Source: Candidatus Micrarchaeota archaeon (GTDB lineage: Archaea; Micrarchaeota; Micrarchaeia; Norongarragalinales; UBA97). From it: DNA of 64,000 nucleotides. The position numbers were made by a program, and so were the translations under genes. Where the stretch lies: contig JACQBR010000001.1 in assembly GCA_016194335.1 (NCBI GenBank), forward strand, positions 19,460-83,459, in the 5' to 3' direction. A model generated the notes under the pieces. It saw only the letters and a program-made list of their open reading frames with translations, searched no databases and had not been told where the DNA came from. Of this stretch, positions 3,163 to 60,995 are shown one piece after another. The stretch's first letter is position 1. The number at the start of each line of letters is the position of its first letter.

Positions 3163-6100
3163 ATGGTCGGCGAGTCGGTTGTGAAGAGCGAGGGCGGCAA
3201 GCGCAGGCTTGTGATCAACTACAAGGGCAGTCCCTACGGGGCGGACATTGCGCAGTATCCCCAGGTGATGAAGGACGTTGTCGAGCGCCTGCAGATTGCC
3301 GACGTTAACGAGGTCGTGCTTTCGGAGTATTACGAGCGGATTTACGGCGAGGAGCAGACGCGCTACCTCAAGCAGATTGCGGACTTGATTTCGCGCCTGG
3401 AAAGCGACGCGGTGTGGAGCCCGAGCCACCTCGGCCTTTCCACGCAGACCAAGACCATCGCCCCTCGGCACGACGCGGTCCTCAACGTCCTGAACAACCT
3501 GCGTTCCGACCCTTTCAAGGCATACCTCTCCCTCCTTTCTGAAGTGAAGGCAGCCACCGCCCAATTTTCGGCTCTCTCGGGCGAGGACGCGGAGGACTTG
3601 CAGGTTTACCTCAAGACGCTTGAGTTCATGCGCTCTGAAGTTGAGAAGCTCGATCTTGTCAAGGCCATGCGCCAGTATGTCACGCAGCTGGGCAGGCTTC
3701 CGGCCGACCGGGGGATTTACCAGTCGTTTTTCGAGGTTTCCATCAAGCCCAGCTTCATCGGCTCGCGCATCTTCTTCACCGGAACTGAAAACCTCGAGCT
3801 TGTAGACCAGTATTCCGTGCTGGGGAGCAAGGTCTACATCTACAAGCACCCCGACAAGGTGGAATGCCTCTACTTCATCAACCCGCCCGAATACACACTT
3901 TCTCCCGAAAAATATTTTCTCCTTGAGAAGACCAAGGAAGTAGTCGCCGGCCACCGGCCCACGGGTGAGGGCGCGAGCTTTTTTGACATCGGTCAGGCGC
4001 GGCAATATTTCCACAAGATTTACGTAGCCACCATTTCCGACCTCGCGGCTAAAAACAAGATTTCCCTCACTGTGGAGGAGAAGGAGGAGCTTGCGGCAAT
4101 CGTCTCGCGCTACACAATCGGCTATGGCGTGATGGAAGTCCTGCTTTCCGACAGGCAGCTCACCGACGTTTACGTCGACGCGCCCCTTGGGGTAAAGCCG
4201 ATTTACCTCGTGCACGGCAAGTACGGCCAGTGCCAGACGAACATCGTCTTTTCCGACGAGGAGGCGCGCTCGCTCGTCTCGCGCTTCCGCGCTCTTTCCG
4301 GAAGGCCTTTTGACGAGGCGCACCCCATCCTCGACTTCGACCTCGAGGACCTCCAGACGCGCATCGCCGTCATCGGCAAGCCGCTTTCCCTTGACGGGAT
4401 TGCATTCGCATTCCGCCTTCACAAGGAACAGCCTTGGACCCTGCCCCAATTCCTGGACGCGAAAATGATGACGCCCACTGCCGCGGGGCTCTTCTCGTTC
4501 TTCGTTGACGCTCAGGCGAGCATGCTCATAGTCGGCTCGAGAGGCTCTGGAAAAACCAGTCTGCTCCAGTCGCTCATGCAGGAGATTCCGCAGAATTTGA
4601 GGCTGATTGTGCAAGAAGACACGCAAGAACTCCCAATTCCCGCCCTCAAGCGCCTCGGGTTCAACATACAGAGAATGAAAACAAGGCCGCCGCTTGGAAA
4701 GCAGAGCGAGGCGGAAGTAAGCGCCGAGGACGCGTTGCGCACCGCGTTGCGCCTTGGTGACAGCGTGCTCATCGTCGGGGAAGTGCGCAGTTCAATCCGC
4801 GGCGACCAGGAAGTTCTTGTTATCGAGAATGGAATGACCAAGCGCATTCCGATAAGGGAGCTTGAAGGGAAGAACGTGGAGACTTTCAAGGTGCCCACAC
4901 TCGGTTTTGACCTCAGGTGCAAAGTTTCAGCGCTTTCCGGATTCGTGAAGCATCCCGAACGCAGCAAGCTGGTGGAAATCACTACGAAGACCGGAAGGAA
5001 GGTTACCGTAACGCACGACCACTCCCTCTTCACTTCGACTCGGGATTTCAAGGTAGCGGCAATCGAATGCAAGGATCTCAGAGAAGGAGATCAATTGGTG
5101 ATTCCGTCAACAATCCCCTGCGGGTTCAACGACGTGGAGTTCATCAACGTCTTTGACATGCTGCCGGAATTCAGGGTGCAGAATTTCGAGGAACCGATGA
5201 GGCGGGCTATTGCGAAAACAGGCTGGCGCGAGGCAACTAGAGTTGCGGAGGTCAAAACTGGCGACATCTACAATTATTACCGGACCAACCAAAAGTCATA
5301 TCCGACCCTCGCCCAGTTTTCCAGCGTAATGCAGCTTGCCGGTGAGAAAATCGATTTCGGGCACCTGCAAGTAAGGCGCGGGTCGAGCAATCCGATTCCG
5401 GCAATAATTCCCGTCGATGAGGATTTCTGCAAGTTTTTAGGTTACTACGTCTCTGAAGGATATTACCGCCGCGAGAAAAAAGGAGGGGGCGCCGTCGTCC
5501 TCACCAATTCCAACGAAGTTCTTCTTGCGGACATGAAGGGGATGTCGCGCTTCGTTTTTGACGTTGAGCCTTTGGAACGCGAAGTGCACGGCGCAGGCAC
5601 CAGCACTCAAGTCCAAATCAACAGCGCGCCTCTCATTGCCCTCGTGGAAAGACTCGGCGGGGGTAGGATATGCACGCAAAAGCGGGTGCCGCCGTTGATA
5701 TTCGGCCTGAGCAAGCCTAAGATTGCCGCATTCCTGCGGGCGCTTTACAGTGGAGACGGCAACATCACCACAAGCTTGCGGTCTGGCAATGCCATCAGTT
5801 ATTTCACCACCTCGCAAAAACTCGCCGAGGACGTGGCGTATCTCCTTATGGTTTTCGGGATAGTCGCGAGAATAAATTCCCGCCAGCCAAAGGTTGGCAA
5901 CAGGCTATGGGTTGTGGAGTTCAAAGACCGCCAGATGGTGGAGCGGTTCATGTCCGAAATAGGGTTCGTGCAGAAAAACAAGCCGTTGGTTAAGATGGCT
6001 TGGGCGCACACCCGGTCGAGCACGGTGTATTTCGAGAAAGACGCGCTTAGAAAGCATCTTACTAAATATCCCAGGGAGCACCGCCACCTTTTCCGCTCCC

Positions 6101-10324: not shown

Positions 10325-10813
10325 TCACTCCTGCAGGATTGCCTTCGCGATTAGGGCGTAAGTTTGCGCGTCACAGTACCAGCCGCTTGCAATCAGCCTG
10401 TCGAGCCACGTGATTCCTTCCCGCTGTGAAACGAGCTTTCTTCTCACGGCTTCTATGAGCAGTGCCGTTGAGTTTACCGTCTTTACTTGCCGCATTTGGG
10501 CAATCAGCCTGACTTCCCGGTCATCGGCTACCGCAATTGCCCGCAGTTCCTGCGCCAGATGGATTACGCTGGCGTCGGAGGCGCTTATTCCGTGGTGTTC
10601 TGGCGTTTTTCCCGAAAACGGCTTCACCCCGATTTTCCCGTTTTCGAAGGATTCTTTGAGAAGTTGGGCGCCGGGATGCAGGACGCCCTTGGGCAGCACT
10701 TCATCAACAACCTGAGGGGTGGTTACGAATTCGTGATTGAGCCTAAAGGCCGTTTGAAGAAAACCGGTTCTGGAGAAGTGAATCAACGGCGTTGAGTCAA
10801 GCACGAGCAGCAC
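10325..10813 (-). CDS. PIN-domain protein (COG2405/DUF3368-like), putative toxin
   Basis: 162 aa; N-terminal LVLDSTPLI PIN-like start with acidic residues; paired with UPF0175-like gene immediately upstream on same strand. Confidence 0.55.
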   Translation of the reverse strand: MLLVLDSTPLIHFSRTGFLQTAFRLNHEFVTTPQVVDEVLPKGVLHPGAQLLKESFENGKIGVKPFSGKTPEHHGISASDASVIHLAQELRAIAVADDREVRLIAQMRQVKTVNSTALLIEAVRRKLVSQREGITWLDRLIASGWYCDAQTYALIAKAILQE

Positions 10814-15671: not shown

Positions 15672-16358
15672 TCACTTGATTCCCATTTCGTCCATTATTT
15701 CCTCGAACGTCTTCCTTCTCACGGGGCCCGCAACTGGCAGTTCCTTTGCGGGTTTTTTTGAGGCCGGTGAAACGTTCCGGATGTCGGGAGGCGCAATCCC
15801 GTCCATGCTCTTCCCGCGCGGAACGTTGGGAATTCCGGTTGCCTCAAGCGTGCTTGGAGATTTCAAAGGGGACTGCCATTCCCGCTGATTTGAAGATGCG
15901 AATGCCAGTTCTTCCTGCGGTTTCCTGATTGTCTGCGGGACGGTTGCGGGGCGCACTGCGCCGCCGGCTCTTACGACCTTCACTTCAGGTTCCGGGGCAA
16001 CAGGCGCGGCGGGACGGGCGGGAGTGCGCGTTTTCGGCCAAACCGAATCAAATGCCCTCAGTGCGAGGGCCGCAATTGTGCAGAAGGCAAGAAGCAAGGC
16101 GGCGAACTCACCGGAAGAGGAGAGCGCGGCTTGGCGGCCTGAAACAACAAGGTCAATTCCGAATGCAGCCAGCACGGCAACTATCCCCACAACCGCCCCG
16201 TAGCCCATCTTGGATGCAGCGTCCCATTCCCGCGAGCGTTTAACCCCAAGCCTCACCAGGGGATAGCCTATTGAGAATGCCCCCGCCATGAAGGCGAGGT
16301 AGAATGCGCCCGTTGATACCGCGTCGGCCATGTTGATGAGTAGAAGAGAGCTAGGCAA
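15672..16358 (-). CDS. membrane protein (3-4 TM) with disordered C-terminal tail
   Basis: 228 aa; 16 nt upstream of zinc-ribbon gene on same strand (likely operon); hydrophobic N-half, P/A-rich C-half. Confidence 0.5.
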   Translation of the reverse strand: MPSSLLLINMADAVSTGAFYLAFMAGAFSIGYPLVRLGVKRSREWDAASKMGYGAVVGIVAVLAAFGIDLVVSGRQAALSSSGEFAALLLAFCTIAALALRAFDSVWPKTRTPARPAAPVAPEPEVKVVRAGGAVRPATVPQTIRKPQEELAFASSNQREWQSPLKSPSTLEATGIPNVPRGKSMDGIAPPDIRNVSPASKKPAKELPVAGPVRRKTFEEIMDEMGIK

Positions 16359-31647: not shown

Positions 31648-31825
31648 GCAGGAGTGGCAGAGCCTGGAAAATGCGGGGGCCTTAAGAGCCCCTCCCTCAG
31701 GGGTTCGCCGGTCCAAACAAACCTTTTCTTTCTTTGCTCGTCGGCGTTGCGACGCCTCCTCGTCAAAGAAAGAAAAGCTTTGATGGAAAAGAAAGAAACG
31801 GTTTTAGGGAATCCGGCCTCCTGCA
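31648..31825 (+). tRNA. tRNA-Leu (anticodon UAA) with ~94-nt intron in the T-loop (position 59/60)
   Basis: GCAGGAG-UG-GCAG-AGCCUGGAAAA-UGC-G-GGGGC-CUUAAGA-GCCCC-long variable arm-GCCGG-UCCAAA[intron 31718..31811]U-CCGGC-CUCCUGC-A; acceptor stem perfect 7 bp. Confidence 0.6.
31718..31811 (+). repeat. hairpin repeat element (CTTTTCTTTCTTT...AAAGAAAGAAAAG) forming the tRNA-Leu(UAA) intron; second copy at 53603..53710
   Basis: ~80% identity over ~90 nt between the two loci incl. 13-14 bp perfect inverted repeat and trailing GGAAAAGAAAGAA motif. Confidence 0.55.
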
Positions 31826-55809: not shown

Positions 55810-56742
55810 ATGCCGCTTACCGTCCTGCACAAGGGAAAGTACGAATTTGGAGTTGCTCCGTCACAGCGTAGCTTGGACGCTCTTTTCGGGTACGGCGTGG
55901 CGCTTGTTGACAAGCCAAAGGGCCCGTCAAGCCACGAGGTTTCAAGCTTCGTGAGAAAAATGCTGGGCATCAAAAAGGCGGGCCACTCCGGGACGCTGGA
56001 CCCCGAGGTGAGCGGAGTGCTTCCCGTGCTTCTGCAGAACAGCTGCAAGCTCGCGCCGCTCCTTATGGGAAGCGTGAAGGAATACGTTTGCGTCATGGAC
56101 TGCGCCAAGGAATTTTCAAGGGAGGAGCTTGACGCCGCGCTTGAGAATTTCAGGGGGAAAATCTTCCAGACCCCGCCGCTTGCAAGCGCCGTTGCCAAGA
56201 GGCTGCGCGTCCGAACCGTCTACAAGCTCGAGATTCTCGAGGTGCGGGGAAGAAGCGTGCTTTTCCACTCGCGCGTGCAGGGCGGGACCTACATCCGCAA
56301 GCTCGTTGAGGACGCGGGCAGGGTGCTTGGCGCCGGCACGACGATGGCCGACTTGCGCCGCACGCTCGCGGCGGGGATTGCGGAAAAGGACTGCGTTACC
56401 CTCCAGGAGCTCAGCGACCGCCTCTGGCTCGCACGCGAGCAGGGGAATGAAAAGCCCATCCGCGAGTGCGTGAGGCCCATTGAGGAAGTGGTGAAGGTCA
56501 AGCGCGTAGTTGTCGGCGACGGGATGCTCGTCCCGCTTTCAAGCGGCTCGAACCTCGCCTGCGGCGGGGTGGACGCGCTTGACGGGAAGATTGGGGCGGG
56601 CGATGTCGTGGGAATCTTCACCGGAAAAGGCGAGTTGCACTCCATCGCGCGCGCGTCGCTTGGCACGAATGAAATTGCGGAAAAGAAGAACGAGAGGGAA
56701 ATGGCGTTTGACGTGATGCGGGTTGTGCAAAGCGTGAAGTGA
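55810..56742 (+). CDS. cbf5: tRNA/rRNA pseudouridine synthase Cbf5 (TruB family with PUA)
   Basis: GHSGTLDPEVSGVLPVLL TruB catalytic Asp motif; 310 aa. Confidence 0.85.
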   Translation: MPLTVLHKGKYEFGVAPSQRSLDALFGYGVALVDKPKGPSSHEVSSFVRKMLGIKKAGHSGTLDPEVSGVLPVLLQNSCKLAPLLMGSVKEYVCVMDCAKEFSREELDAALENFRGKIFQTPPLASAVAKRLRVRTVYKLEILEVRGRSVLFHSRVQGGTYIRKLVEDAGRVLGAGTTMADLRRTLAAGIAEKDCVTLQELSDRLWLAREQGNEKPIRECVRPIEEVVKVKRVVVGDGMLVPLSSGSNLACGGVDALDGKIGAGDVVGIFTGKGELHSIARASLGTNEIAEKKNEREMAFDVMRVVQSVK

Positions 56743-56894
56743 AACGAGGCGCGCCTGCGAATTAGGGGTTTCCGCGTGGTTTCATTCAATCGGATTTCTC
56801 TTCTTCATTCCGGCAACAAACTCCTCGCAGATTCGCCCAATGTCACTGATAGCAAATCGCATTAATTCTGGAACTTTAGAAGTGCGATTTGCAA

Positions 56895-57215
56895 CTAGCG
56901 GATTGCTGGCAATGTTTCATTATTTATGCAATCCGCTATTACTGAGCCGGCGGATAAAACCTCGTCATTGAGCGCTTTGGCCTCCTTGTTCATCATCCCG
57001 CGGGTTGTTGCGATAGTCTTGCCGTCATTCCAAATTCCTTGCGGAACCCCTTTCGGATAATCTTCTCCGTGCAGGTATTTCCACAGTTCTATTCCCTTGT
57101 TTGTCTTTACTATTGCGGCGTGTTGGGTGATTCCCTTTCGCCAAAATCTTTCTGGCCTTAGGGTAAGGTGGAGAGTTGCCATGCAATCACTGCCGAGGGA
57201 TGTTTGACTCCGCAA
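56895..57215 (-). CDS. hypothetical protein (106 aa) in lower-GC patch
   Basis: ORF on opposite strand between cbf5 and tRNA-Ser; no motif. Confidence 0.35.
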   Translation of the reverse strand: MRSQTSLGSDCMATLHLTLRPERFWRKGITQHAAIVKTNKGIELWKYLHGEDYPKGVPQGIWNDGKTIATTRGMMNKEAKALNDEVLSAGSVIADCINNETLPAIR

Positions 57216-57337
57216 CCCTTTAAATGCCTTTTCCTTTCACAATTATGTTGCGCATAGTCGCTACATCGTGCCAAGCTGGAGTCTTGATGCGCGTATTGGA
57301 TTGCGCCAAGTGAAGAATCAGCTTGACACGATGATGT

Positions 57338-57593
57338 GCCGGGATGCCTGAGCGGTTAAGGGGCTAGCCTGGAACCAGCGCCGATTTAGGCATAAAAGAT
57401 CGGCCTTTTCCTCCGAAAGCTAGTGGCTTCACAGCCTCCTGGGTTCGAAACAAAATCCCTGCCGGGGTCAAAGAGAGTTTTTCCGGCCGGTTGCCTAAAA
57501 ACGCTGTTTCTTTCAATGCGGTTGCGCGTTTTTAACGCCCCGCGTCTGGAAAAGAAGCTCGGCAGTGTTTTGGCGTAACTCCCAGTCCCGGCG
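57338..57593 (+). tRNA. tRNA-Ser (anticodon GGA) with two introns: canonical 37/38 (43 nt, 57375..57417) and T-loop 59/60 (~130 nt, 57450..57579)
   Basis: GCCGGGA-UG-CCU-GAGCGGUUAA-GGG-G-CUAGC-CUGGAA[intron]A-GCUAG-UGGCUUCACAGCCUC-CUGGG-UUCGAA[intron]U-CCCAG-UCCCGGC-G; 7-bp acceptor stem perfect. Confidence 0.55.
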
Positions 57594-57626
57594 TTTAAAA
57601 TTCATCCGAAAGCCGTTTAGCAAAAG

Positions 57627-58355
57627 TTGGTGAAAAAGTTTTTGGCCGACATTCCCCAGTCCAACGGCGTTCCCTCCAAGCCCGTGGCTCAGGCCCCGCA
57701 GCCTTCATCCCCGGTTCAGGCAAGGCCAGCGGCATCGCCTGCCGGTTCCGCCCCTTCCCATCCGCCCCAACCTATTTCAAGGCCCGTTTCCCCCTCTTCC
57801 CAAGCCCCCAAGCCCGCTTCCGACGTGGGCAAGGAAACGCGCGGAATCGTCCGCATCCTCGGCAAGGACCTCAAGGGAGGCGTGAAGCTCGACCGCGCGC
57901 TGGGGCTGGTGCGCGGAGTGGGCCGCAACCTGGCGCGCGCCCTTTCAATCGTCATCCAAAAGGCGCTTTCCATCTCCCCCGCGACTCACGTGGGAGACCT
58001 TACCGACAAGCAGATTCTCTCCATCGAGGAGCTCATCAGGGACCCGGTGAAGTTCGGCGTTCCGGCATTCCTTCTCAACAGGCAGAAGAACCGCAGTTCG
58101 GGCCGCAACTCCCACCTCGCGCAGACGGACCTGCAGTTCGCAGTCAGGCAGGACGTCGAGCTTGAGAAGGCATTGCGTTCCTGGAGGGGATGGCGCAGCA
58201 GCCTCAACCAGCGCGTGCGCGGCCAGCACAACCGCACTACGGGCCGCACTGGAATGACCGTGGGAGTCCTCAAGAAGGCCATCAAGTCGCAGAAGGCTGC
58301 GGCCGCAACCTCGGCGCAGGAAAAGGCGCCCGAGAAGAAGGCGGAGAAGAAGTAA
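57627..58355 (+). CDS. rps13: 30S ribosomal protein S13 with ~70-aa P/S/A-rich N-terminal extension (start uncertain)
   Basis: S13 core from ~aa 70 (RGIVRILGKDLKGG..ALGLVRGVGRNLARA..); extension may be untranslated. Confidence 0.8.
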   Translation: MVKKFLADIPQSNGVPSKPVAQAPQPSSPVQARPAASPAGSAPSHPPQPISRPVSPSSQAPKPASDVGKETRGIVRILGKDLKGGVKLDRALGLVRGVGRNLARALSIVIQKALSISPATHVGDLTDKQILSIEELIRDPVKFGVPAFLLNRQKNRSSGRNSHLAQTDLQFAVRQDVELEKALRSWRGWRSSLNQRVRGQHNRTTGRTGMTVGVLKKAIKSQKAAAATSAQEKAPEKKAEKK

Positions 58356-58376
58356 TTTTTACAAAGTGATCAATCC

Positions 58377-59117
58377 ATGGGAGCACCCAGGCGTTTAAGG
58401 AAGCTTTACGAGAAGCCCAAGAAATTGTGGGACGCGTCCAGGCTCGAGCAGGAGCGCAAGCTCATTGACGAGTACGGCCTGAAGAACATGCGCGAGCTTT
58501 GGAGGATACAGACGGTTCTGCGCAAGGAGCGCCGCGAGGCCCGCAGGCTTCTTGCCGCACGGGGCGTTGGCGTCGAAGGGAGCGCCGAAAGGCTCCTTGC
58601 CCACGTAAGGCAGTTCCTCCTGCGCAAGGACGGCGCAACGCTTGACGACATTCTCGCACTTAGCGTCCGTGACATTCTCGAGCGCAGGCTGCAGACGGTG
58701 GTGTTGCGCAAGGGGTTCGCCCAGACGACCGCGCAGGCGAGGCAGTTCGTGGCCCACGGCCACATTTCAATCAACGGTGCGAAGAGCACCTCGCCCTCGA
58801 GGCTCGTGCTTTTTGCCGAGGAGCCCCAATTGGGCTGGTACGGAAAGCCTATCGTCCTTGAAGAGGCGAAGGAAGGGGAGAAGGCGGAAGACGATTCCGG
58901 GGCAAAGGCCGAACACGAAGGAAAGCAGGCGGAAGAGCCTGCGCAGAAGAATGTTGACGCGGCAAAAGTCGAACAAAAGGAAAAACCTGCAGATGGGCAT
59001 TTGCAGAAGGTTGATGTTGCGGCAAAGGCCGAGCACAAGCAAAATCCCGCAGAAGAGCAGCATCCGCAGAAGGCGGTTGAGGCGGAAACGAGCGTTGCAG
59101 CCGCAGCAGCGGCATAG
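58377..59117 (+). CDS. rps4: 30S ribosomal protein S4 with acidic/Lys-rich C-terminal tail
   Basis: S4 N-domain + S4 RNA-binding domain (HGHISINGAK); 246 aa. Confidence 0.85.
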   Translation: MGAPRRLRKLYEKPKKLWDASRLEQERKLIDEYGLKNMRELWRIQTVLRKERREARRLLAARGVGVEGSAERLLAHVRQFLLRKDGATLDDILALSVRDILERRLQTVVLRKGFAQTTAQARQFVAHGHISINGAKSTSPSRLVLFAEEPQLGWYGKPIVLEEAKEGEKAEDDSGAKAEHEGKQAEEPAQKNVDAAKVEQKEKPADGHLQKVDVAAKAEHKQNPAEEQHPQKAVEAETSVAAAAAA

Positions 59118-59128
59118 GTAACGGTTGA

Positions 59129-59623
59129 TTGAAAATGGCAGACGAAAAAACAGCGGCGGCCCAATCGGTTGCGAAGCCCGCGGAAGAGGCCAAGCCTCCA
59201 GTTGAGGCCCAGAGGCGCTCCGACTACATCCCCCCCAAGGACGGGAAGTGGGGAATCGCGTTCATCTTCTCGTCGAAGAACAACACCATCATCACCATTA
59301 CGGACTTAAGCGGCGCCGAGACGATTGCCGTCGGGAGCGGCGGCATGATAGTCAAGGCGGACCGCGAGGAAGGCAGCCCCTACGCGGCAATGCAGGCGGC
59401 ATTCCGCGCTTCGGACAAGGCCAAGGAGCGCGGCATCATCGGCGTGCACATCCGCGTGCGCGCACCCGGCGGGCACAAGAGCAAGACTCCCGGAAGCGGC
59501 GCGCAGGCGGCCATCCGAGCCCTTGCGAGAAGCGGCCTGCGCATAGGCAAGATTGAGGACGTCACTCCCATTCCCACCGACACGACCAAGAGGCCGGGCG
59601 GGAAGCGCGGGAGAAGGGTATAA
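59129..59623 (+). CDS. rps11: 30S ribosomal protein S11
   Basis: [20 protein letters not shown]11 signature. Confidence 0.9.
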
Positions 59624-59641
59624 GTTTGCCGGTCGGCTTAA

Positions 59642-60385
59642 GTGTTAATGGTGTTGAAAATGCAGTTTGAGGTTCTTGAGCGCGAGGGCGATTCGAAGCT
59701 TGTGCTTCACGTGAGGAAGGCAAGCGTAGCTTGGGCCAACGCGCTGCGCCGCACCATCATCGGCGGGCTGCCTTCGTTCGCGATTGACGAGGTTGACTTT
59801 TACGAGAACAACTCCCCGTTCTTCAACGAGTTCATCGCAAACAGGCTGGGGCTCATCCCCCTCACTTTTGACGAGTTGGTCCCCGCCGACGCGAAGATTT
59901 CCATCTCTTGCAACGCGTCCGGCCCCCTGCGCGTGTACTCCAAGGACCTGGTGAGTGCGGACGAGCGCGTCGGCCCCACGGCCGAAACGTTCCCGATTGT
60001 CGACTTGGGCGAGGGGCAGGTGCTGCGTTTGGAAGGCTGGGCCGTGATGGGCGTTGCGAAGAAGCACGCCAAGTTCCAGTGCGCCCACGCGTCTTACGGC
60101 CATTATCCCGTCTTCAAGGTGAAGAAGAACTCGCCGAAGCTCAAGGAATTCATTGACGCGCTTCCCGCAGCCTGCAAGGACTCGAAGGGAGAGCCGGTTG
60201 CATACAAGTGCGACGCACTCGAGCATTTCGCGCAGGAAAACACCGACATCGCGGAATTTTCGTTCAAGGAAGACGAGTTCGTCTTCAGGATAGAGTCCTA
60301 CAACAACGTTCCCGCAAAGGAGCACCTCGTGAGGGCCCTTGAAACAATAAAGGAAGAGGCGAAGGAAGCCAGGAAATTGCTTTAG
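59642..60385 (+). CDS. rpoD: DNA-directed RNA polymerase subunit D (Rpo3)
   Basis: 247 aa; RpoD/Rpb3-like; position S11-rpoD. Confidence 0.85.
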   Translation: MLMVLKMQFEVLEREGDSKLVLHVRKASVAWANALRRTIIGGLPSFAIDEVDFYENNSPFFNEFIANRLGLIPLTFDELVPADAKISISCNASGPLRVYSKDLVSADERVGPTAETFPIVDLGEGQVLRLEGWAVMGVAKKHAKFQCAHASYGHYPVFKVKKNSPKLKEFIDALPAACKDSKGEPVAYKCDALEHFAQENTDIAEFSFKEDEFVFRIESYNNVPAKEHLVRALETIKEEAKEARKLL

Positions 60386-60387
60386 AT

Positions 60388-60579
60388 GTGGGGGTGGCAG
60401 AGCCTGGTCAAAACCCTTTTCGAAAGAAAAGGGAAACAAGCAACGCATGACAAGGTCGCCCTCAAAACCCGCAAACGGGTTCCAACAGAGCGCCTGTAAT
60501 TTGCTTTTCGTTGGCCAAATGCGCAGGATTGAGGCTCCTGTTCCTTAGGGATGCCTGGGTTCAAATCCCAGCCCCCACA
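60388..60579 (+). tRNA. tRNA-Leu (anticodon GAG) with ~106-nt non-canonical intron in the D-loop (approx 60413..60518)
   Basis: GUGGGGG-UG-GCAG-AGCCUGGUCAAA[intron]A-UGC-G-CAGGA-UUGAGGC-UCCUG-UUCCUUAGGGAUGC-CUGGG-UUCAAAU-CCCAG-CCCCCAC-A. Confidence 0.6.
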
Positions 60580-60623
60580 CTCGCGATTAATTCGGACGGT
60601 CCAAAGCCATAAACTAAAATCCA

Positions 60624-60995
60624 GTGATTCCAAAAATGAAACGCGGTTCGGACAATTCAGTGATGCTTAGGACCATTGCGTCGTGCGAGAAGGCGGGCCG
60701 CAAGAACCACGCAGCGGCGTACGAGCGCGTGGCGGAACTTCTCAAGCGCCCCAGCCGAAAACGCCCCGGCGTGAACCTCTACAAGATTTCAATGCACGCC
60801 AAGGACGGCGAGACCGTCGTCGTGCCCGGCAAGGTGCTCGCAGTGGGGACGCTCGGGAAGAAAATCACCCTCGCGTCGTTCGGCACTACCGGCGCTGCCG
60901 TGGGGAAGGTCGCGAAGTCCGGTTCGAAGCTCATCTCCATCCAGAAGCTCGTTGAGGAGAATCCATCGGGAAAGGGCGTGAAGATAATCGTTTGA
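60624..60995 (+). CDS. rpl18e: 50S ribosomal protein L18e
   Basis: 123 aa; L18e/L15P-like; canonical position after rpoD. Confidence 0.8.
   Translation: MIPKMKRGSDNSVMLRTIASCEKAGRKNHAAAYERVAELLKRPSRKRPGVNLYKISMHAKDGETVVVPGKVLAVGTLGKKITLASFGTTGAAVGKVAKSGSKLISIQKLVEENPSGKGVKIIV

Follow-up and report, generated by a model that had tools for sequence, protein, structure and literature searches.

The question raised by this locus is whether positions 57338-57593 (+) of the window (the whole 64-kb stretch of DNA that was analysed) hold a genuine tRNA-Ser(GGA) gene and, if so, what kind of inserts separate its parts. The original prediction had proposed such a gene with one intron in the anticodon loop and a second, of about 130 nt, in the T loop. 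The locus is indeed a real and conserved tRNA-Ser(GGA) gene interrupted by two introns, and the acceptor, anticodon and T stem elements were all found at the coordinates claimed for them. The 5′ strand of the acceptor stem, GCCGGGA (57338-57344), pairs perfectly with TCCCGGC (57586-57592), which is followed by the discriminator G (G73) at 57593. Between the two strands of the anticodon stem, CTAGC/GCTAG, lie CTGGAA, then a 43-nt insert (57375-57417), then A; those of the T stem, CTGGG/CCCAG, are separated by TTCGAA, an insert of 130 nt (57450-57579) and T. Both intron positions, 37/38 and 59/60, and both lengths are those predicted, the second being exactly 130 nt. Exon 1 (57338-57374 (+), tRNA positions 1-37) is kept in all orthologues and carries the acceptor 5′ strand, the D arm, the 5′ strand of the anticodon stem and the loop CUGGAA with the anticodon GGA. 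Intron 1 (57375-57417 (+), 43 nt) follows at the canonical 37/38 position. Exon 2 (57418-57449 (+), tRNA positions 38-59) contains the 3′ strand of the anticodon stem, a long variable arm (GGCU-UCAC-AGCC), the 5′ strand of the T stem and UUCGAA; intron 2 (57450-57579 (+), 130 nt) then interrupts the T loop between A59 and U60. Exon 3 (57580-57593 (+), tRNA positions 60-73) supplies U60, the T stem 3′ strand CCCAG, the acceptor 3′ strand UCCCGGC and the discriminator G, where it ends, the 3′ CCA being absent from the gene sequence.

Joining the three exons in silico gave a product of 83 nt, the mature length that had been predicted, and ARAGORN called it tRNA-Ser(GGA), reproducing isotype, anticodon and the two-intron layout. 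In the ARAGORN model of the spliced 83-mer the acceptor stem has 7 bp, the D stem 3 bp and the anticodon stem 5(+1) bp, the variable arm is long and the T loop reads UUCGAAU. On the raw DNA of the locus ARAGORN made no call, with or without its intron mode (introns up to 300 nt), and no Rfam match was obtained either at the gathering threshold or at E≤1; standard scanners do miss this gene, as had been expected. Across the whole 64-kb window ARAGORN calls two tRNA-Thr genes only, and the Rfam tRNA model finds the same two.

The host of this gene is an archaeon, by gene set, gene order and the name of its Cbf5. The ORFs neighbouring tRNA-Ser encode SecY, Cbf5, S13, S4, S11 and RpoD (Pfam). Upstream, the syntenic anchor is cbf5 (55810-56742 (+); Pfam DKCLD, TruB_N, TruB_C_2 and PUA). 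Downstream it is the gene for ribosomal protein S13 (57627-58355 (+); Pfam Ribosomal_S13), which starts 34 nt 3′ of tRNA-Ser in the window and at a distance of 17-125 nt in the relatives checked. An NCBI protein from a Candidatus Micrarchaeota MAG matches the window Cbf5 at 100% identity, and the next homologues, largely from Micrarchaeota too, are 53-62% identical. A scan of genome contigs with Cbf5 returned distant relatives only (29-43% identity) and no useful orthologue. The gene order here and in relatives is cbf5 - tRNA-Ser - S13 - S4 - S11 - rpoD - tRNA-Leu - L18e - L13 - S9 - rpoN. In Haloarcula marismortui, presumably, a tRNA-Ser likewise lies upstream of S13 and a tRNA-Leu after rpoD; the present locus differs from this archaeal tRNA-Ser/S13-S4-S11-rpoD (alpha-operon-like) cluster in that both tRNAs are interrupted, tRNA-Ser by two introns and tRNA-Leu(GAG) by an intron in the D loop. 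Two minor features of the neighbourhood were also recorded. A 106-aa ORF with no Pfam match occupies 56895-57215 (-), between cbf5 and tRNA-Ser; a 95-aa gene is called at its place in L006, and it is missing from the short cbf5-tRNA spacers of most relatives. The S13 ORF (57627-58355 (+)) has an N-terminal low-complexity extension rich in P/S/A/Q/K, some 55-75 residues long, ahead of the Pfam S13 domain; L074, L095 and L042 have such an extension too, and the true start codon is uncertain.

The 5′ leader of the gene contains a putative TATA element, CCCTTTAAATGCC (57216-57228 (+)), which from the alignment would be promoter-like for tRNA-Ser; it aligns with a conserved GCTTAAAAGCCC / GCCTTAAAAGCC element of L008, L010, L012, L014, L137 and L139. 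This element lies about 110 nt from the tRNA +1 in the window, as against about 30-38 nt in the relatives. Between CCCTTTAAATGCC and the +1 there is an insertion of about 90 nt (57246-57337), found only in the window strain and its 99% relative L006, and within it a structured leader hairpin (57264-57333 (+)). The fold of 57236-57346 has an energy of -39 kcal/mol (z = -2.27).

Orthologues were collected from contigs encoding Cbf5 homologues and from a scan of metagenome contigs with an exon 1 pattern. This yielded 14 complete, distinct two-intron tRNA-Ser genes, each with inserts at 37/38 and 59/60: the window (= L006), L008, L009, L010, L014, L012, L137, L139, L042, L074, L086, L095, L078 and L141. 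In three partial copies (L016 (= L015), L127 and L138) the first insert is again at 37/38 and the second comes after UUCGAA. Where it is known, the identity of Cbf5 to that of the window is 53-62% (L008, L009, L010, L012, L014, L137, L139 and L141; among the partial copies, 53% in L016 and 56% in L138). At least 11 of the 14 orthologues lie directly upstream of S13; every check of the downstream gene, by gene tables and Pfam, gave S13 except that of L078. All two-intron copies run through ARAGORN were missed, and four intron-less tRNA-Ser(GGA) genes from other archaea, picked up by the same pattern scan, were called.

A cloverleaf alignment was built from 13 sequences, 10 spliced and 3 intron-less. 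In it 98.1% of cells are paired and nine pairs have changes on both sides; neither the observed pairing nor the covariation score was reached in any of 500 shuffles, and sliding the stem partners lowered pairing to 21-47%. The anticodon stem and the T stem, which are the two split by introns, are each 100% paired with two covarying pairs, and of the five cloverleaf helices four show compensatory changes. The exception is the acceptor stem, which does not vary; because the exon 1 search pattern had preset its 5′ strand, it carries no weight. With 14 distinct sequences sharing the split gene, and compensation across both inserts, chance is excluded. The exons are 73-94% identical to those of the window, against 44-63% in intron 1 and 26-57% in intron 2; L074 and L086 are identical in exons and intron 1, whereas intron 2 measures 66 nt in the former and 178 nt in the latter. 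Judged from these comparisons, the pattern of conservation is that of a functional gene in which two inserts are tolerated and evolve fast, and not of a pseudogene. Both introns look old and appear to have been inherited vertically at one locus, and a set of 14 genes with shared sites, with Cbf5 only 53-62% identical where known, shows that an intron at the non-canonical 59/60 site need not be recently transposed and can be an old one, passed on stably. Four independent assemblies (L015, L016, L127 and L138) end their contigs inside intron 2 of tRNA-Ser. This intron seems to be a hot spot for indels and may be heterogeneous within populations.

[quoted passage not shown] The original prediction had named BHB motifs at both junctions as the check to be made, and the outcome differed between the two introns. 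At 59/60 the outer helix is the 5-bp T stem, and the central helix is formed by U54-U55-C56-G57 with an intron CGNN just before the last two intron nucleotides. In the window this helix is UUCG/CGUA, with three of four pairs and one U.U, and three or four of the four pairs form in all 12 complete genes scored. Most relatives have CGGG, CGGA, CGAA, CGAG or UGAA as the intron strand, and L042 has CGGC with a U.C mismatch; within the window clade 96.9% of cells are paired, with changes from U.G to U-A. Both bulges are 3 nt long (A58-A59-N and N-N-U60), AAA / ACU in the window and AAN / AAU in most relatives. Window intron 2 also has a closing inner helix (CAAAAU/GUUUUG), internal hairpins and the 3′ end GCGUAAC. 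The 59/60 junction is a conserved relaxed BHB of the hBH/hBHBh′ type, as cut by the ARMAN-2 enzyme at the same position, so the BHB motif stands here in its relaxed form.

At 37/38 the motif is only weakly developed in the window sequence. The outer helix (the anticodon stem) and a strong inner hairpin with a covarying stem are present in every gene; in the window this hairpin is GCCGAU/AUCGGC with the loop UUAGGCAUAAAAG. L010 and L014 differ at six sites in 200 nt, five of them within intron 1 and all five in the hairpin stem, where every change preserves pairing (5/5, including two full compensatory pairs). The central helix of the window, CUGG/UCCG, comprises C-G, a U.C mismatch, G-C and G.U. 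It is perfect in L009 alone (CUGG/CCAG), has four pairs with two G.U in L078, and in the canonical register has two of four pairs in L008, L010 and L014. The central helix is thus weak in most members, and the intron 1 junction would be at best a relaxed BHB, not a canonical one. In the window the junction can slide from 34/35 to 37/38 with no change to the mature RNA; it was set at 37/38 because L009 has a unique junction and a canonical BHB.

The lengths of intron 2 range widely: 130 nt in the window, 152 nt in L139 and 178 nt in L086, and 29-46 nt in L141 (29 nt), L042, L078 and L095. Archaeal tRNA introns were reviewed in 2014 as 11-129 nt long, with medians of 12-25 nt (PMC4090602). Since intron 2 varies from 29 to 178 nt, the 59/60 site tolerates large expansions, and at 130-178 nt these are at or above the reviewed range of 11-129 nt.

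The architecture of this gene, multi-intron and BHB-spliced, is of a kind already documented in Micrarchaeum/ARMAN-2. In ARMAN-2 (Ca. Micrarchaeum) 56% of tRNA genes are disrupted, two-intron tRNAs are present, and a 59/60 hBH intron is cleaved in vitro by the epsilon2 EndA (PMC3239211); multi-intron tRNAs of ARMAN-1/2 are listed in PMC4033280. The epsilon2 enzyme occurs in Micrarchaeum and Mancarchaeum (PMC3239211, PMC5829648), and ARMAN-1/-2 pre-tRNAs are processed by this three-unit endonuclease (Fujishima et al. 2011, PMC3239211; Hirata et al. 2012, PMC3488258). The present gene resembles these cases in belonging to the same phylum, in its 59/60 site (the one cut in vitro in ARMAN-2 pre-tRNA-Cys), in its relaxed hBH junction, in having two introns in one tRNA (as in ARMAN-2 tRNA-Pro, at 53/54 and 59/60) and in its high fraction of disrupted tRNA genes (3/5 in the window, 56% in ARMAN-2). 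It differs in being the Ser GGA isoacceptor with the site pair 37/38 and 59/60, in a T-loop intron of 130 nt (29-178 nt in relatives) as against 13 nt in ARMAN-2 tRNA-Cys, and in the complementary conserved motifs of both introns (see below), which are not described for ARMAN-1/-2 in the Fujishima and Hirata work. The Thermoproteales offer a second parallel, with multiple BHB introns at canonical and non-canonical sites (up to three per tRNA there), relaxed hBH/HBh′ junctions and special scanner routines needed for detection (Sugahara 2008 and Fujishima 2010, as reviewed in PMC4033280 and PMC4090602). However, these are Crenarchaeota, of another superphylum and with another enzyme type, the (alpha-beta)2 EndA, and their introns are mostly 12-25 nt long, many seemingly recently transposed.

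The best-supported pathway, modelled on what is published for the related enzyme of ARMAN-2, is the usual protein-catalysed splicing of archaea, applied twice to one precursor. That precursor would be at least 256 nt long and probably transcribed together with the S13-S4-S11-rpoD operon. EndA would cut in the bulges flanking the 4-bp central helix at both junctions; for the T-loop intron, that helix would be formed by U54-G57 with the last CGNN of the intron and would stack on the T stem. The exons would then be ligated by an RtcB-type enzyme and, after CCA addition, the expected product is an 83-nt class II tRNA. The unconstrained fold of the whole precursor is marginally more stable than that of shuffled sequences (z = -1.85) and does not recover the cloverleaf; constrained folds were used in its place.

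That the locus is a functional tRNA-Ser(GGA) gene of a Micrarchaeota (DPANN) archaeon with two BHB-type, protein-spliced introns is, in our judgement, very likely, and the other readings were weighed against it. The gene could be a decaying pseudogene, with a second, intact tRNA-Ser(GGA) elsewhere doing the work, as the original prediction had allowed; the silence of standard scanners and the imperfect central BHB helices of the window sequence would fit this. The prediction's pseudogene alternative is nevertheless contradicted by the persistence of the gene at the same syntenic site in Micrarchaeota lineages as divergent as the Cbf5 identities given above, by exons conserved far above introns and by the compensatory stem changes. 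Neither the 64-kb window nor the orthologous loci of 6-11 kb showed another tRNA-Ser, and we regard decay as highly improbable. An arrangement like the split and tri-split tRNAs of Nanoarchaeum and Caldivirga, whose pieces come from separate loci with promoters of their own and are joined in trans, was discarded: the three exons lie within 256 nt and are, in all 14 genes, contiguous and colinear on one strand. Still less credible than decay are readings of the 130-nt insert as a group I or II self-splicing intron or as the host of a guide sRNA (C/D or H/ACA). Group I introns are reported from archaea including Micrarchaeota (PMC6125680), some archaeal tRNA introns nest C/D box sRNAs (PMC4090602), and tRNA-Ser adjoins cbf5. 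Against self-splicing, the insert has no Rfam match even at E≤1 (Intron_gpI was not matched). The group I intron has a conserved P3-P8 catalytic core and is typically over 200 nt long, and 130 nt (29 nt in L141) is too short for that core. Against a guide, no C/D or ACA boxes were seen by eye and there was no Rfam C/D or H/ACA match inside 57375-57579 at E≤1. Neither proposal fits an insert whose length ranges from 29 to 178 nt in orthologues with little common sequence outside one motif. The Rfam scan of 56700-60700 did give a C/D match at 57686-57739 (-), inside the S13 ORF; at 19.9 bits against a threshold of 45 bits it was disregarded.

Each of the two introns also carries conserved sequence of its own. 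The apical loop of intron 1 carries UUUAGGCA (57385-57392 (+)), in which AGGC is invariant, and intron 2 carries the near-invariant GGUUGCCUAAA (57489-57499 (+)), in which GGUUGCCU is invariant. Part of the latter, UGCCUAAA (57492-57499), is the exact complement of UUUAGGCA over 8 bp. The eight genes of the window clade all keep AGGC in intron 1 together with GGUUGCCU in intron 2, their introns being otherwise 49-63% identical to those of the window. The conserved blocks are AGGC flanked by runs of U and A, and GGUUGCCU(U)AA between two hairpins of intron 2. When the intron motifs were searched across the window, the only extra matches were at 15837 and 46672; these are at chance level and in ordinary sequence, and the motifs are therefore no repeated mobile element in the window. 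Two further ideas were dropped. One was that intron 2 arose by transposition of intron 1; local alignment of the two within each gene was not significant against shuffles. UGCCU of exon 1 (positions 8-12) was considered as a partner of the intron 1 loop, but L012 and L137 have A at position 12 with the loop unchanged.

It is conceivable, and we put it forward tentatively, that the inserts are more than passive introns, the UUUAGGCA loop and the UGCCUAAA linker forming a kissing helix through which the two introns may communicate, aid precursor folding, or order or couple the two splicing events. This is suggested by the invariance of AGGC and GGUUGCCU in eight genes with otherwise diverged introns, and the 8-bp complementarity is 93.8% paired in the alignment. 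Four pairs never vary, and the sole change in the 5-bp core is from A-U to G.U. Moreover, the intron 1 motif lies in a loop predicted to be unpaired in six of seven constrained folds (P about 0.93-1.0 for UUUAGGCA in the window fold). In outgroups what looks to be the same helix lies wholly within intron 1, in cis, its core covarying and its flanks reading UUGC...GCG(U/C)A; four such helices were read directly from the sequences, UGCCUG/CAGGCG in L016, UGCUCU/AGAGCG in L074, UGCUCCG/CGGAGCG in L095 and UGCCC/GGGCG in L141. However, there is no compensatory double substitution, and thus no covariation that would prove the pairing, and L139 alters both flanking partners to give a G.G mismatch. 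The RNAduplex energies between the introns are not significantly better than those of dinucleotide shuffles in any gene, so thermodynamics alone do not support the helix. In five of seven genes UGCCU has a possible cis partner, an AGGC(R) within intron 2 itself, and this is the pairing adopted in the minimum-energy fold; both motifs could instead be protein-binding sites.

A markedly less probable use of the same motifs is as internal TATA-like promoters, either for the S13 operon or for separately transcribed tRNA pieces. The resemblance of GCCTAAAAA / GCCTTAAAACC in intron 2 to the tRNA upstream element GCCTTAAAAGCC points this way, and in several relatives S13 begins only 17-35 nt past the tRNA, which leaves no room for a promoter between them. 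This reading is weakened because the invariant bases are G/C-rich (GGUUGCC, AGGC); it is the A/T part that varies (CCTAAACC, CCTAAGAAC). S13 starts anywhere between about 80 and more than 220 nt from the motif, and for pieces that are contiguous and colinear, transcription together with the tRNA is simpler. Were the kissing helix real, a tertiary contact would scaffold a precursor three times the size of a tRNA or enforce an order of splicing. Because sister lineages have the helix in cis in intron 1, the element would then have persisted through the move of one strand from one intron to the other. If the pairing between introns is functional, this would be a case of tRNA introns that carry structural information beyond the splice-site motif.

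Disrupted tRNA genes are not confined to tRNA-Ser in this window. The original prediction had likened the T-loop intron to one in a tRNA-Leu(UAA), and that gene was found at 31648-31825 (+), with a 94-nt intron (31718-31811) at the same 59/60 position and a T loop reading UCCAAA, intron, U. ARAGORN and Rfam missed it in raw DNA, and ARAGORN calls tRNA-Leu(UAA) once it is spliced in silico. The same holds for tRNA-Leu(GAG) at 60388-60579 (+), directly 3′ of rpoD, which has a D-loop intron of about 106 nt (about 60413-60518, with the junction placed to ±1-2 nt), was missed by the scanners in raw form and was called by ARAGORN after splicing. Within the same 64 kb, tRNA-Ser(GGA) and two leucine tRNA genes are invisible to ARAGORN and to the Rfam tRNA model; annotated by those scanners alone, the genome would seem to be without a decoder for the UCC/UCU serine codons. 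Undetected disrupted genes have been given as the reason why the tRNA sets of DPANN archaea look incomplete (PMC5829648). In the outgroup L086 an uninterrupted tRNA-Leu(GAG) lies at 5619-5703, about 2.8 kb downstream of tRNA-Ser. In L008, after rpoN, ARAGORN reports a 97-nt 'tRNA-???' with a 4-base anticodon (tggg) at 10378-10474 (+), and the matching place in L014 holds a normal tRNA-Pro(GGG); the L008 call is probably another intron-containing tRNA mis-called by the scanner.
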